From Smithella sp. (GTDB lineage: Bacteria; Desulfobacterota; Syntrophia; Syntrophales; Smithellaceae): DNA of 64,000 nucleotides. The notes under the pieces are model-generated. The model made no database searches, was not told the DNA's origin, and worked only from the letters and a program-made list of their open reading frames with translations. Positions 14,034 to 29,582 of this stretch are shown in pieces. The translations under genes were made by a program, and so were the position numbers. The number at the start of each line of letters is the position of its first letter. Position 1 is the first letter of the stretch. The stretch lies in assembly GCA_012510495.1 (NCBI GenBank), contig JAAZHX010000216.1, forward strand, positions 22 to 64,021. The letters are read 5' to 3'.

Positions 14034-15197
14034 ATGAAGAAAATCATCACGCGCTCCTGGCTCCTGCTGCTGGTTTTGCCGGTGTTATTTTGCGCCGGCG
14101 TCGAAGCAGCCGTTATTCCCGTCGCCAAATTCTGCTCCCCGGATCTGCCGGGCGGAGCGCCCGCCGGCTGGGCGCTGGAGAAAAAAACCGGCTCGCCGTC
14201 CCTGAAAATCTCCAAAGAAGACAACAACTATTATCTGCATCTGCGATCGCAGGGCAACTCGTCCTTCGGCGTGCGCACAGGGGCGCGCGTCAACGTGAAA
14301 GACTTTCCAATTCTTTCCTGGCGCTGGAAAGTTGAAAAAATGCCCGTCGGCGGCGATGTCCGCAAAAAAACAGCTGATGATCAGGCTCTCCAGGTCTATG
14401 TTGCCTTTAAAGAAACCGGTTTCCCGGCTGTGCTGAACACGCCGGTCGTCGGCTACATCTGGGACAACGAAGCGCCCAAAGGATGGAGCGGACGCAGCAC
14501 ACAGATCGGCGGCGACAAAATGCGCTACATTGTCTTGAGGAACAAAACGGACAAAACCGGCCAGTGGTACACGGAACGCCGCAATCTGTATGAAGACTAC
14601 AAAAAACTTTTCGGCGACATCAACGGAGGTGAACCGTTCGGCGTCACCACCGGTCTGCAAATCCACATCAACACCCAGCGAACCAGAACTCCCGCCGAAG
14701 GTCTGATCGGCGAGATCTGCTTCAGCAACGAGACGAAAGACATCGCGGCAACGAAAGCCGCCAGGGAGAAAATCGTTTCCGCAACACCCGTGCTCTCCGC
14801 TCCCAGGGGGAAAGCGCTGCCCGGGGCCGTCCTCGACGGCGATTTCAACCGCCCGGGTTGCGTCAACATCAGCGTTGCCTTCGACACCAATTCCACGCAG
14901 GTGGACGCCATCCCGAAAAGCAGCGTGCAAACGGTTATTGAATATCTGGTGAAGTATCCCGAGAACACGCTCGCCATCACCGGCCACACGGACAGCGTCG
15001 GGACCAACGCTGTCAACCTGGATCTGTCGCGGCGGCGCGCCCAGAGCGTCAAACAATATCTGGTCGAACAATACGCCATCGACGAACATCGCCTGACCGT
15101 CCGGGGCGCAGGCAAATCGCAGCCGATCGCCGACAACGACACACCGGAAGGCCAGGCGCAAAACCGCCGCGTGACGATTCAGGCTTGTCCGCAGTAA
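14034..15197 (+). CDS. Secreted DUF3047 domain protein fused to an OmpA-family peptidoglycan-binding domain
   Basis: Signal peptide. DUF3047-like region (FPILSWRWKVEKMP...DDQALQVYVAF). OmpA_C motifs (TGHTDSVGTNAVNLDLSRRRAQSV...NRRV). Confidence 0.8.
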   Translation: MKKIITRSWLLLLVLPVLFCAGVEAAVIPVAKFCSPDLPGGAPAGWALEKKTGSPSLKISKEDNNYYLHLRSQGNSSFGVRTGARVNVKDFPILSWRWKVEKMPVGGDVRKKTADDQALQVYVAFKETGFPAVLNTPVVGYIWDNEAPKGWSGRSTQIGGDKMRYIVLRNKTDKTGQWYTERRNLYEDYKKLFGDINGGEPFGVTTGLQIHINTQRTRTPAEGLIGEICFSNETKDIAATKAAREKIVSATPVLSAPRGKALPGAVLDGDFNRPGCVNISVAFDTNSTQVDAIPKSSVQTVIEYLVKYPENTLAITGHTDSVGTNAVNLDLSRRRAQSVKQYLVEQYAIDEHRLTVRGAGKSQPIADNDTPEGQAQNRRVTIQACPQ

Positions 15198-15223
15198 AAA
15201 ATTCTTTTTTCGAGGAGCGTTTC

Positions 15224-18202
15224 GTGACCCCTATCCATGTATTGCAGCCGACCATGCGGGCCGGCGATGTCGTCCAGGGTTTTGTCGTATTGCGCGTCGA
15301 AGTCATCGAGGCCATGCGCCTGACCGCCTATGAAATGGAGCACAGCAAAACGGGCGCCAAAGCACTGCATCTGCACGCCCCGGACCGGGAGAACCTTTAC
15401 GCCATCGGCTTCAGGACGCCGCCCGCCGATTCCACGGGCCTGCCCCATATCCTGGAGCATTGTGTGCTGGCCGGTTCGGAGAAGTATCCGCTGAAAGACG
15501 CCTTCAAAGAACTGATTCGTTCCAGCATGCAAACCTTCATCAACGCCTTCACATACCCGGACAAAACCCTTTACCCGGTGGCCAGTCAGATCAAGGCGGA
15601 TTTTTATAATCTGGCGCGCGTTTACACGGACCTGGTCCTGCATCCCCGCCTGCTTCGCGAAACCTTCCTGCAGGAAGGTCATCATCTGGAATTCGCCAAG
15701 CCCGGCGATCCCGAAAGCGATCTGATCATCTCCGGCATTGTTTACAATGAAATGAAGGGTGCTTATTCGTCGCCCGATTCGCTGATGTACAAGGACATTC
15801 AGCAGCATCTTTATCCGGACACCGTGTATGCCCTGGATTCCGGGGGCGACCCGGATGTCATCCCCGCGCTTACGTATGAGCAGTTCCGGGATTTTCACCG
15901 CCGATACTATTCGCCGACCAACGCGCGCTTTTTCTTCTATGGAGACATTCCCACCGCGGAACATTTGGAATTTCTGGCCGAAATGCTGGCCGGCTTCGAG
16001 CGGGTAGAGGTGGATTCATCCATTGTCAACCAGCCTTTCTTTCCCGCCCCAAGGCGCGTTGCCGGCGTCTATCCCATTGACCCGGACGAGACGACGGAGA
16101 ACAAAGCCTTCGTCAACCTGGCCTGGATGCTCGCCGAAAACAAAGACTTTGAAACAACGCTCGAGCTGTCCATCCTTTCCGGCCTGCTCGTGGGCAGCGC
16201 CGCGTCGCCTCTGCGCCGGGCACTTGTCGATTCAGGCCTGGGAGAAGACCTGTCGCCCGTGTCCGGCATCGAATCCGATCTCAAGCAGCTGATGTTCTGC
16301 GCCGGTCTGCGCAACGTCAAAAGCACCGACATCCCGAAGGTTGAAAAGCTGATCCTCGATACCCTGCAAAAAATTGTCGCCGAAGGATTCGACCCGGAAC
16401 TCATCGAGGGCATCCTGCATCAGGTCGAATTTCACGGCCGGGAAATTTCCCGCGGCGCCTATCCTTACGGAATCACGCTGATGGGCGGCGTTTTTCAGAC
16501 CTGGCTCTACGACGGCGACCCCCTGGCCGGCCTCGATTTCTCGCGCGTGATTGAAAAGATCCGCCTCCTCCTGAAGGACGATCCGCAGATCTTCCAGAAA
16601 ACGGCCCAAAAATGGCTGGTGGACAATCCGCATCGTCTGCTGGCGGTGATGGAACCGGACCCCGATTTCAACCGGAAGAGCGAAACCGAATCAACGAAAA
16701 AGATGGCCGCGCTCAAAGCCGGTTTGTCGAAAGATCAGTTGCGGGAAATCGATGAGCAGGCGAGGCGCCTGAAAACCTTTCAATCCGGAGAGGACTCATC
16801 GCAGGCCCGGGCGAGTCTGCCCAAGTTGAAAATGGAAGACCTTCCCCGGCAGGTGGAAACGGTTCCGACCCGGCGCAAAACCCTGGATTCGACTCCCGCG
16901 CTGGCGCATGATCTGTTTACCAACGGCATTGCCTATGTAGATCTGGCATTTGATACGGCATCGCTTCCCGAAAGCCTGCAGATCTACCTGCCGCTTCTGG
17001 GAAAAATCGTCGGCGGCATGGGCGCGGCGGGCCTGACCTACGACGAGATGGCCAAACGCATTGCTCTGCAGATGGGCGGATTCGGCTATAACCTGTCTTC
17101 CGGCCTTTCCGTGGATGCGGTCCGGGTCTGGCAGAAAATGGTTTTTTCCTTCAAAATGCTCTACCGCAATATTCCGCAGGCTGTCCGGACCGTCCGCGAC
17201 ATCCTCTGCTTTGGGGATTTAAACGATGAGGCGAGAATGCGCGATTTAATTGCCGAGCGGAAAAATAATATGCTGTCTTCGGTCGTTCCCTCCGGACATG
17301 TTTACGCCAAGCGGGCCGCGGCGGCGGCGCTTTCGCTGCCCGCCTACCGTGATGAACAGTGGCACGGCCGGACGCAGCTGCGCTTTGTCCAGCAACAGGC
17401 GGAGGGCCTCGGCGCTTCCAAAAACGATCTGCGCGGAAAGCTGGAGCAGCTTAGGAAAATCCTCTTTACCCGGCAAAACCTGACGGTCAACATGACCGCC
17501 GACACGGACGGTCTGACGCTGCTGGAAGCACAGCTTGGCGAGCTTCTGGAAAGCCTGCCGGCGGGCGGACGAGGGGAAGAGCCCGGCAGGCCCACGCTTG
17601 CGCCCGTCCGCGCGGGCATCGCGGTTCCCGCTCAGGTTTCCTATGTGGCCTCGGCAATGAAAACGCCCGCCCATAACGATCCGTCTTCCGCCTTTTTGAT
17701 GCTGGCATCGCGGGAACTGTCCAACACGTATCTGTACAAACATATCCGCGTGCAGGGCGGCGCCTACGGAGGAATGTCGTCTTTCGATCCGTCGCAGGGC
17801 GTATTTGCGTTTTTGTCCTATCGCGATCCGCATATTGTGGAAACGATAAATGTTTTTGAGGATGCGCAGAAATTCTATTCCAGAAATGAAATGACAAAAG
17901 ACGATTTGGAAAAGGCCGTGATCAGCGCGCTGGGCGCGCTGGACAAACCCTTCGATCCATCGGGGCGCGGTTATGTCGCCCTGTTCCGGCATTTCAGCGA
18001 CGCAACCGATGACGTGCGCCAGGCTTTCCGGAACCGACTGTTTGCCGCAACGCCGCGTCAGGTCCGGGACGCCTTGTCCGACTATTTTGAAAAAGCCTCG
18101 CCATCCGCATCGGTAGCGGTTTATTCTTCGCAGGAAAAACTGGAAGAAGCCAACCGGCGTCTGGAAAAGAAGCTGAAGCTGGAAAAGTTGTCGGAAGCAT
18201 AG
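15224..18202 (+). CDS. M16C-family zinc metalloprotease (insulinase / PreP-like)
   Basis: HILEHCVLAGS (HxxEH) zinc motif. About 990 aa with four M16-type domains. GAGGAG lies 7 nt before the GTG at 15224. Confidence 0.85.
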   Translation: MTPIHVLQPTMRAGDVVQGFVVLRVEVIEAMRLTAYEMEHSKTGAKALHLHAPDRENLYAIGFRTPPADSTGLPHILEHCVLAGSEKYPLKDAFKELIRSSMQTFINAFTYPDKTLYPVASQIKADFYNLARVYTDLVLHPRLLRETFLQEGHHLEFAKPGDPESDLIISGIVYNEMKGAYSSPDSLMYKDIQQHLYPDTVYALDSGGDPDVIPALTYEQFRDFHRRYYSPTNARFFFYGDIPTAEHLEFLAEMLAGFERVEVDSSIVNQPFFPAPRRVAGVYPIDPDETTENKAFVNLAWMLAENKDFETTLELSILSGLLVGSAASPLRRALVDSGLGEDLSPVSGIESDLKQLMFCAGLRNVKSTDIPKVEKLILDTLQKIVAEGFDPELIEGILHQVEFHGREISRGAYPYGITLMGGVFQTWLYDGDPLAGLDFSRVIEKIRLLLKDDPQIFQKTAQKWLVDNPHRLLAVMEPDPDFNRKSETESTKKMAALKAGLSKDQLREIDEQARRLKTFQSGEDSSQARASLPKLKMEDLPRQVETVPTRRKTLDSTPALAHDLFTNGIAYVDLAFDTASLPESLQIYLPLLGKIVGGMGAAGLTYDEMAKRIALQMGGFGYNLSSGLSVDAVRVWQKMVFSFKMLYRNIPQAVRTVRDILCFGDLNDEARMRDLIAERKNNMLSSVVPSGHVYAKRAAAAALSLPAYRDEQWHGRTQLRFVQQQAEGLGASKNDLRGKLEQLRKILFTRQNLTVNMTADTDGLTLLEAQLGELLESLPAGGRGEEPGRPTLAPVRAGIAVPAQVSYVASAMKTPAHNDPSSAFLMLASRELSNTYLYKHIRVQGGAYGGMSSFDPSQGVFAFLSYRDPHIVETINVFEDAQKFYSRNEMTKDDLEKAVISALGALDKPFDPSGRGYVALFRHFSDATDDVRQAFRNRLFAATPRQVRDALSDYFEKASPSASVAVYSSQEKLEEANRRLEKKLKLEKLSEA

Positions 18203-18207
18203 GGGAA

Positions 18208-18242
18208 AAGACTGAAGGCCGGTAAAACAAACCTTCGGTCTT
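18208..18242 (+). terminator. Stem-loop after the M16 protease gene
   Basis: AAGACTGAAGG / CCTTCGGTCTT gives an 11-bp stem with one G-U pair. No U-tract follows, so confidence is low. Confidence 0.3.
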
Positions 18243-18265
18243 CAGCCTGTGTTTGGAGCTGCTCG

Positions 18266-18475
18266 ATGACGGATAACAAAAAGACCGACACGCTGATCAA
18301 CTGTTTGTTCTGTGAACATTTCTACCTGACCCGCCGGGTGGAGGCACCTTACGGCTGACGGGCGCACGCTTTCACGATGTTCCGCATGCCCTCCGTGGAC
18401 GTCTTCGGGGCTTCAAGCGAAGACTGTGCACTGCTGGTTCGCCGGGAACCGGGCGAGCACCCACACGAGGGATGA
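18266..18475 (+). CDS. Candidate small selenoprotein (CxxC...PYG-U...C family), in-frame TGA at 18356-18358
   Basis: The ATG-to-TGA frame reads MTDNKKTDTLINCLFCEHFYLTRRVEAPYG[TGA]RAHAFTMFRMPSVDVFGASSEDCALLVRREPGEHPHEG. The frame stays open across the TGA. The final stop overlaps the ATG of the next ORF (ATGA). The genome encodes a Sec-containing SelD. Confidence 0.45.
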
Positions 18476-18807
18476 CACCCGCAAGAAAGGAAACCACCAT
18501 GAACATTTCACAATGGCTGGACCGGAAAGAATCCCAGGGCTTCGATGTGTCTCACGCCGTCCTGCCCACGGAGCTGGAGCGCGAAGAAGAGCCGGATGAA
18601 ACTATTTTTTTCAAGGAAATCCGCCCCTGCAGCATTTTGTGCACGGGCGATCATCCCTTTGCCACGGTCGAGCGATTCGGCCGCTGGTACCGCAGCCGGG
18701 GACGGGAAAAGGAAAAAGGACCTCATACCGGCAAGCCGCCGTGGTGGTTTTTCACCCGGGACCGGGACCTCGCCCTGCAGACAGCCAAATCCCGCATTGA
18801 AAAATAA
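18472..18807 (+). CDS. Hypothetical protein
   Basis: 111-aa ORF. Its ATG overlaps the stop of the upstream small ORF. An alternative ATG lies at 18499. No recognised motif. Confidence 0.4.
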   Translation: MTPARKETTMNISQWLDRKESQGFDVSHAVLPTELEREEEPDETIFFKEIRPCSILCTGDHPFATVERFGRWYRSRGREKEKGPHTGKPPWWFFTRDRDLALQTAKSRIEK

Positions 18808-28529: not shown

Positions 28530-29582
28530 TCACTCCAAGAAAATTTTACCCGGATGATCGGCCACGACGTCGCCAACGACGGCCGCGTCCCTGATGCCCG
28601 CCCGGCGCATGGCCTCCGCAAGAGGCGCCGCCTTGGCGGCCGGCAGGCTGAAAAACAGACCGCCCGCCGTCTGCGGATCGAAGCCCACATCAAAAATCCA
28701 GTCCGGACAGGAAGACACCTTTTCCACCTGGCGCAGGCGGTAGTTCCGGTTGCGGTAAAGACCGCCGGGAAGGTAGCCGGATTCCACCAGATCCCGCACA
28801 CCCTCCAGAATCGGGATCCGGTCTGCCCGGATCCGCAGGCCGATATCGCTGCCTTCAATGGTTTCACAGGCGTGTCCGAGGAAACCGAATCCGGTGATAT
28901 CCGTGCAGGAATGGATGTCCCCCGCGGCGATCATCAGATCAGCGGCTTTTTTATTGAGCGTTGTCATACAGCGCGTAGCCTCTTCGATCAGGCCCGGGGC
29001 GGCCACCCCCGCCTTGATGGCCGTCGCGGCGATGCCCGTGCCCAGCGGCTTGGTCAGAATGAGTTTATCGCCTGCGCGGGCGCCGCGATTGAAAAGAACG
29101 CGGTCCGGATGAACCGTGCCGGTCACCGACAGGCCGTATTTGATTTCGTTGTCTTCCACGCTGTGGCCACCGACGAGCAGCACACCCGCTTCGCGCATCT
29201 TATCCAGCCCCCCGAGCAAAACATCGCGCAGTACCGATTTGTCCATGGTCTTGATGGGAAAACAGACGATGTTCATGGCGGTCAGGGGCGCGCCCCCCAT
29301 CGCGTAGATATCGTTGAGGGCGTTGACTGCGGCAATCTGACCGAAGGTGAAAGGATCATCCACCGTCGGCGTGAAAAAATCTACGGTCTGCACCAGCGCC
29401 AGGTCGTCGGAAATTTTATACACGCCCGCGTCTTCCGCATGTTCATACCCGGTCACCAGTTTCGGATCGGAAACAAACGGCAAATCTTTGAGAATGTCAG
29501 ACAGGTCCCCCGGACCGATCTTGCAGGCTCAACCCGCACTCGATACGGTTTGGCTCAAACGAACGGATTTTTTTTCTTCCAT
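28530..29582 (-). CDS. selD: Selenide, water dikinase (selenophosphate synthetase), Sec-containing
   Basis: The ATG at 29582 gives MEEKKSVRLSQTVSSAG[TGA at 29531-29529]ACKIGPGDL..., the canonical G-U/C-x-CK active-site loop. A GGUCC-GGG-GGACC hairpin follows the UGA. The rest is a typical SelD/AIR-synthase fold. Confidence 0.9.

Follow-up and report, generated by a model that had tools for sequence, protein, structure and literature searches.

The 64,000-nt stretch of Smithella sp. DNA analysed here (the window) contains a small gene in which the codon for the third of four conserved cysteines is replaced by an in-frame TGA (Table 1), and it may well be that this TGA is recoded as selenocysteine (Sec), a reading that we regard as evenly poised and under which the gene would encode a 69-aa selenoprotein with Sec in place of the invariant third Cys. 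The candidate is well-founded but unproven. It is favoured by the fixation of the allele in a strongly constrained gene and by the retention of a linked partner gene, and disfavoured by the lack of a SECIS element, by the recent origin of the allele and by the failure to find other Sec forms. If real, the protein is a bacterial selenoprotein of the Sec/Cys-pair type, from a family that is so far uncatalogued.

Table 1. Features discussed in the text, in window coordinates
Feature	Position	Strand	Remarks
M16/PreP-type peptidase gene, upstream syntenic neighbour	15185–18202	+	kept in L038, L042, L046 and L050
GGAG Shine-Dalgarno sequence, 7 nt 5′ of the small-ORF ATG	18255–18258	+	kept in L001
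Four-Cys small-protein ORF (CxxC...PYG[U/C]RA...P...C)	18266–18475	+	one TGA inside
In-frame TGA, invariant third Cys (column C31)	18356–18358	+	TGC in L001, L038, L042, L045, L046-49 and L050-53
Hairpin 1	18360–18392	+	stem GGG(C)GCACGC/GCAUGCCCU, 14-nt loop UUUCACGAUGUUCC, -7.7 kcal/mol
Hairpin 2	18391–18410	+	CUCCG[UGGACGUCUU]CGGGG, -7.3 kcal/mol
102-aa gene, downstream	18499–18807	+	alternative start 18472; Syntrophales-restricted
selD	28530–29582	-	Sec codon TGA 29529–29531, in SSAG-UGA-ACKIGPG

The TGA allele and the four-cysteine family

The 69-codon frame reads MTDNKKTDTLINCLFCEHFYLTRRVEAPYG up to its sole in-frame TGA and RAHAFTMFRMPSVDVFGASSEDCALLVRREPGEHPHEG from there to the terminator, a translation that bears out the description in the earlier note of a frame staying open across a single TGA. 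The same TGA is found on 15 contigs from metagenome assemblies, each derived from a separate SRA/ENA sample, and is therefore a real allele and no sequencing error. These contigs represent two haplotypes, which differ at 2 of 213 nt in the region of the small gene and at 21 positions over ~3,200 nt in all (0.65%). The TGA is older than the split between them and is the only allele seen in the lineage (16/16 sequences). Gene callers have recorded only the 30-aa N-terminal piece of the product (P0020, P0183). If the UGA is read through, the predicted tryptic peptides include VEAPYG[U/C/W]R, AHAFTMFR and MPSVDVFGASSEDCALLVR.

Use of UGA as a general sense codon was rejected, given that the small ORF's own terminator is a TGA located in the same place as the terminators of its orthologues. 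Within the 64-kb window there is no second, Cys-form paralogue of the gene. A simple screen of the window for further genes interrupted by a stop codon was discarded, as it overlooked selD itself. Between the stop codon of the upstream M16 peptidase gene and the ribosome-binding site of the small ORF lies an imperfect stem-loop (CTGAAGGCCGG...CCTTCGGTCTTCAG; 18210–18246) that is not followed by a T-run and could be a processing or attenuation element.

A word-indexed search with Sec written as Cys returned one protein, the 69-aa P0001 (APYG-C-RAHGF), which shares 84% identity with the window protein (E=1.9e-34), and an exhaustive phmmer search with this Cys-form orthologue returned 308 clusters at E<1e-3. 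The family of small PYGC proteins that the earlier note had described, as often being mis-annotated, does therefore exist, and one of its members, RLB89845.1, does carry the name 'uracil-DNA glycosylase'. C13, C16, C31 and P42 never vary in alignments of 100 and of 147 members, and C54 is retained in at least 90% of the sequences, the consensus being C-x2-C-x-H-F-Y-I-T-W-D-x3-P-Y-G-C-R-A-x-G-F-K-S-x3-P-S-x2-V-x3-S-G-x2-C-x2-F. The window protein retains C13, C16, P42 and C54, and alignment of the Cys-containing homologues around its UGA, as had been proposed, places the UGA in column C31, where all 147 homologues have Cys; replacement of the third conserved Cys is thus confirmed. Length, Cys spacing (3/15/23), flanking motifs and P42 are shared between the window protein and this unnamed four-Cys family (e.g., RLB89845.1), from which it differs in that its third Cys codon is TGA. 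The clade to which it belongs has also drifted from the consensus, with LT for IT, APYG for FPYG and F-T for F-K. The syntenic orthologues (L001, L038, L042, L045, and P0307) are likewise members of the four-Cys family.

Identity with uracil-DNA glycosylase was rejected, as no domain of that enzyme was detected with Pfam or NCBIfam in the window protein or in 100 family members, and the label carried by RLB89845.1 is an annotation artefact. The Pfam and NCBIfam searches gave nothing relevant for the window protein, its 102-aa neighbour, the 100 family members, P0101, P0003 or the fusion protein P0305 (see below), and a profile search of the PDB gave no match at E<=1. An AlphaFold2 model built from the 147-sequence alignment (mean pLDDT 78; 85–93 over residues 11–40) has a confidently predicted core, with three short strands and one helix. 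Foldseek searches with this model against PDB and BFVD yielded nothing significant (best E 7.6 and 0.16, respectively), the weak matches being fragments of HiPIP, zinc-ribbon and Fe-S-binding proteins. HiPIP and zinc-ribbon-like folds resemble the window protein in possessing four Cys that open with a CxxC knuckle, an aromatic-rich core and a length of ~60 residues, although neither a significant structural match nor a Pfam HiPIP or zinc-ribbon match links them to it. In a cytoplasmic domain of 45 residues from anaerobic organisms, four invariant Cys are suggestive of a metal or Fe-S site, and the four Cys/Sec residues may bind such a centre with Sec acting either as a ligand or as the redox-active residue.

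The gene neighbourhoods of two distant family members, P0002 and P0036, are unrelated to one another, so that the function of the family is not derivable from context. At the P0036 locus (L055–L057, 3120–4210) the small gene overlaps by one base (4001) the end of a Peripla_BP_2 gene encoding an iron-siderophore/B12-type ABC binding protein, and a cbb3 oxidase operon is located downstream; this arrangement gives a faint hint of a metal-related role.

Age of the TGA and selection on the gene

The codon at position 31 is TGC (Cys) in all six close or syntenic relatives, including the nearest orthologue, where it is a single base away from the TGA of the window. Its occurrence in every syntenic relative indicates that Cys is ancestral and that the change to TGA occurred on the branch to the species of the window. 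The Cys-form sister lineages are 84–88% identical, and a Cys-to-Sec switch would have taken place recently, inside one Smithella-like species. Because the Cys-to-UGA change is recent, a young nonsense mutation stays a serious rival to Sec, if one that we place on the doubtful side. According to this explanation TGC mutated to TGA in one species and translation ends at 30 residues, which leaves either a young pseudogene or a source of a truncated CxxC peptide. The ancestral Cys in every relative is in keeping with such a history, as is the calling of a 30-aa product by gene callers everywhere. TGA is, moreover, the only stop codon one step from a Cys codon, and 4 of the 20 one-step nonsense paths in the small gene strike Cys codons (20%), so that a random nonsense mutation would fall on a Cys codon with probability 0.2 and the position of the TGA favours recoding only about five-fold.

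Selection on the gene argues in the other direction. Changes unique to the UGA lineage were counted in comparison with five Cys-form sequences, with the TGA itself excluded. Purifying selection acted on both sides of the UGA along this branch: there are 12 synonymous and 6 non-synonymous changes over the whole gene (dN/dS ~0.15; P=1e-4 under neutrality), 5 and 3 upstream of the TGA (dN/dS 0.16; P=0.014) and 7 and 3 downstream of it (dN/dS 0.14; P=0.003). The counts do not in themselves date the TGA. The haplotype split offers only two in-gene differences, too few to test. In the codons after the UGA, the window and L001 differ by 11 synonymous and 5 non-synonymous changes, and in the UGA lineage the small gene shows no acceleration relative to the neighbouring gene. 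Strong constraint along nearly the whole branch speaks against a nonsense mutation, as do an allele that has been fixed throughout the lineage (16 of 16 sequences) since before the haplotypes split, the absence of a second disabling mutation and the intact ribosome-binding site and start codon. By an estimate from the branch counts, a null allele can date back at most to about the final quarter of the branch, and the signal of purifying selection could be largely older than the TGA.

Three replacements after the UGA are specific to the lineage (G35A, T38M, and G51S), of which G35A and T38M affect well-conserved positions of the family. T38M (ACG to ATG, 18377–18379) creates an in-frame ATG six codons past the TGA, at a position where 131 of 146 members have Ser or Thr. 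The new ATG is probably a coincidence, since Met41 is already present in the close relatives. It would nonetheless be one of two possible restart sites (ATG 18377 or 18386) if the locus were a split gene in which translation re-initiates after the UGA. This explanation is best considered together with that of a leaky stop, at which a near-cognate tRNATrp or tRNACys allows read-through at a low level; UGA followed by C is a weak termination context in E. coli, and the context here is UGA-C. Taken together, we consider leaky termination or re-initiation highly improbable. Trp at the position of an invariant Cys would probably inactivate the protein, and a re-initiated C-terminal fragment would be devoid of C31. 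Furthermore, there is no ribosome-binding site 5′ of 18377, and the conservation of Met41 (ATG 18386) in all close relatives means that a new ATG is not needed.

The earlier note had recommended a search for other UGA-containing homologues. A 38-bit DNA pattern was used that specifies TGA at C31 with C13, C16, T22, P28, F36, P42, and C54 in register; it matches once in the window and would recover 118 of 150 Cys forms (79%). Only chance matches were obtained from 185,579 GTDB species genomes (9) and from 241 million JGI metagenome records (12), and no other UGA-containing homologue was therefore detected in either collection beyond the window's lineage. The Sec form, if genuine, is confined to that lineage, and the lack of further TGA forms in the GTDB species genomes and JGI metagenomes is a point in favour of a nonsense mutation. 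Three new families were accepted by deep-Sep without other TGA-containing homologues.

RNA structure and decoding of the UGA

The genome decodes Sec, as the earlier note had stated on the basis of selD. This gene combines a Sec UGA codon with a canonical SECIS element (GGUCC-GGG-GGACC, loop from +18, -11.3 kcal/mol), and thereby demonstrates that this genome has active machinery for Sec decoding. The genes selA, selB, and selC were not seen in the 64-kb window, and no tRNA gene is located there.

Bacterial SECIS elements are described as hairpins with a loop of 3–9 nt, a stem of at least 4 bp and a G in the first two loop positions, situated 16–37 nt past the UGA and folding at <= -7.5 kcal/mol, and a subset of real bacterial elements lies off this consensus (PMC13188914). 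When these constraints were applied to both haplotypes of the candidate and to selD as a control, no qualifying hairpin was found in either haplotype, whereas selD passed at the energy given above. Among random Cys-codon sites in the long ORFs of the window (n=227), 47% pass the SECIS model at <= -7.5 kcal/mol, so that the failure of the candidate constitutes mild negative evidence. Under relaxed rules its best hairpin (-13.5 kcal/mol) falls at the 44th percentile of the random Cys-codon sites, and the local fold is no better than that of shuffled sequence (z=+0.97). Rfam gave no match, either across the entire window at the gathering threshold or at the locus with E<=10, but it did not match the selD positive control either and is thus uninformative here.

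Two individual hairpins can be recognized downstream of the UGA. Hairpin 1 begins at +2, and its 5′ arm lies within +2 to +11 after the UGA. In SelB-ribosome complexes the +2 to +11 stretch is inside the ribosome when UGA occupies the A site. The region of hairpin 1 folds at -6.2 to -12.5 kcal/mol in the Cys-form orthologues, and since the 5′ arm would be inside the ribosome and the structure is present in Cys forms, hairpin 1 is no Sec-specific element. On folding, the Cys forms adopt a shifted register of equal or better energy, and the idea that hairpin 1 is disrupted in them was rejected for this reason. In haplotype 2 a C-to-U change at +9 turns a C.A mismatch into a U-A pair and strengthens hairpin 1 from -7.7 to -11.6 kcal/mol; this gain was set aside as evidence, as it amounts to a single synonymous transition in a hairpin too near the UGA. 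The earlier note had pointed to an imperfect hairpin just after the UGA, and a hairpin is present there, but its interpretation as a SECIS is not supported given the failed constraints, the 44th-percentile energy and the equal folding of Cys forms.

Hairpin 2 misses the SECIS constraints narrowly: its loop starts at +38 and has a G at loop position 2, but comprises 10 nt, compared with the maximum of 9, and its spacing of 37 nt is at the upper limit. The same sequence is found in the Cys form L050, where it likewise codes for the conserved PSVDVFG. Neither hairpin is thus a structure specific to Sec, since both are equally present in Cys-form orthologues, and the RNA evidence for Sec insertion is neutral to mildly negative. 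The want of a consensus SECIS and of any Sec-specific RNA structure lends weight to a nonsense mutation. Should the UGA be read as Sec, it would presumably be decoded by SelB and Sec-tRNASec by means of a non-consensus downstream element, for which the best candidates would be hairpin 2 or a long irregular stem extending from +10 to +53. The most far-reaching version of such decoding without a consensus SECIS appears unlikely, namely one whose outcome is either Sec, serving as a metal or Fe-S ligand in a protein family caught midway through a Cys-to-Sec switch, or Cys, inserted through selC* tRNACys and SelB*.

The latter possibility stems from the discovery of selC* tRNACys, a tRNASec-like tRNACys with a GCA or UCA anticodon, in delta-proteobacteria, a composite Smithella genome among them (Mukai et al., 2017; PMC5389517). 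Reading of the UGA as Cys by the opal-anticodon form of this tRNA, possibly delivered by SelB*, a second SelB described from delta-proteobacteria, would explain why a UGA stands in place of an invariant Cys when no consensus SECIS is present. The system occurs in the same taxon as the candidate (Smithella and other delta-proteobacteria), with selB* located downstream of selC* in Syntrophobacterales and Desulfobacterales, and tRNACys(UCA) has been reported to read the opal codon as Cys in E. coli (PMC5389517). In that paper, however, the UCA form is tied to cysS*, a gene reported from a Desulfobacterales subgroup only (PMC5389517). Nothing in the window ties the small gene to selC*/SelB*, no tRNA gene lies within its 64 kb, and no natural target of the selC*/SelB* system is reported in the literature consulted. 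Insertion of Cys by this route is accordingly given a slim chance. If it did occur, the small gene would be a physiological target of selC* tRNACys and, as far as the literature consulted reports, the first natural one.

Insertion of Sec would place the candidate alongside known bacterial Sec/Cys-pair selenoproteins, such as the SelD of the same genome, whose UGA is decoded by SelB at a SECIS within the coding region. Like them, it has an in-frame UGA where Cys is conserved, homologues with Cys, conservation of the frame beyond the UGA and a host that decodes Sec. It differs from them in having no consensus SECIS, which selD does possess, in having no independent Sec homologues and in the location of Sec outside the CxxC motif. 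The prokaryotic selenoprotein family table of a 2026 review contains no YGU or PYGU motif; Sec-containing small proteins of the metal-binding, Fe-S and FmdB (UxxU) types are recorded in the same review (PMC13188914). The FmdB-family (UxxU), OS_HP3/hypothetical protein DW (NF041197) and CopZ-like 2Fe-2S selenoproteins are small and Cys-rich like the candidate, are probably metal-binding with Sec replacing one Cys of a cluster, and are found mostly in anaerobic Thermodesulfobacteriota (PMC13188914). Neither OS_HP3 (dual-CXXC)/DW nor the FmdB and CopZ-like proteins, however, have any sequence relationship to the candidate. No match to the NCBIfam selenoprotein models, NF041197 included, was obtained for the window protein at E up to 1 or for 100 family members at E up to 0.01, and a full-text search of the literature found no selenoprotein mentioned together with uracil-DNA glycosylase.

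Decoding of the UGA would thus provide a selenoprotein form for a family missing from the 2026 prokaryotic selenoprotein catalogue (PMC13188914), and one that is widespread while having no Pfam or NCBIfam model, solved structure or known function. Sec at the third Cys, if true, would mark that residue as chemically critical and give a handle on the function of the family. The switch would also be very young, judging from the 84–88% identity noted above, and would represent a natural experiment on the origin of a Sec codon and its insertion signal. If the TGA is a mere nonsense mutation, the finding is an ordinary one and counsels caution in calling selenoproteins from a single Cys/UGA pair.

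Gene neighbourhood and the 102-aa partner

The genes for the M16/PreP peptidase, the small Cys protein and the 102-aa protein follow one another in this order also in L001, L038, L042, L045, L046–49, and L050–53. The 102-aa protein encoded in the window is identical to P0308 (NCBI label Smithella sp./Smithellaceae), and its homologues are found in Syntrophales only. It is highly conserved (MNISQWLD...RPCSILCTGDHPF...), has a C-x3-C-T-G-D-H-P-F motif and is matched by neither Pfam nor NCBIfam. It represents a further uncharacterised family.

One sister lineage within the Smithellaceae encodes the small four-Cys protein and its 102-aa neighbour in a single 182-aa ORF (P0305, P0311; L050–L053, 3001–3549), joined through the linker ...EHTHDKCLPGRKERKEN-MNISQ.... 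According to cluster records the P0305 fusion is present on 155 contigs, and it is found also in several NCBI MAGs. This natural fusion argues that the two proteins act together, and the small protein may work with the downstream 102-aa protein also where the two are encoded separately, which makes the latter a testable partner. As the partner gene is intact in the window's lineage and fused in the sister lineage, loss of the small protein would be expected to matter, and the retention of a fused or linked partner is a further point against a nonsense mutation. Some Syntrophales (L039–L041, L043–L044), on the other hand, carry the 102-aa gene without an adjoining small Cys gene; the pairing is therefore not obligatory, which a nonsense mutation would accommodate.

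The stop codon of the small ORF overlaps an ATG in the sequence ATGA (18472–18475), from which the earlier note had concluded that the region is translated throughout. The overlap is present but makes a weak argument for translation, given that a separate ribosome-binding site (AAAGGAAA) and an ATG at 18499 are available to the next gene. Gene callers are split between the start at 18472, giving a protein of 111 aa, and that at 18499, giving one of 102 aa. The last sense codon of the small ORF is GGA in the window, AGA in L001, GAA in L045 and GGA in L046, such that the final A is constant and the amino acid is not; constancy of this A preserves the ATG that overlaps the TGA stop. This hints that the 111-aa form may be used, and translationally coupled, beside the one starting at ATG 18499.

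Haplotype 2 (L007–L016) is collinear with the window up to ~18827 and wholly divergent thereafter. Past this point it contains a 97-aa minus-strand ORF, whereas the window-type contig L002 contains a 122-aa minus-strand ORF with a Cation_efflux Pfam match; the divergence is a structural difference between strains, located just downstream of the locus. Upstream, the window and the other relatives have one ORF of ~1000 aa for the M16/PreP peptidase, whereas gene calling in L042 (743–3734) gives two, of 576 and 416 aa, with 10 nt between them, a split that could reflect a frameshift, a stop codon or an assembly error.
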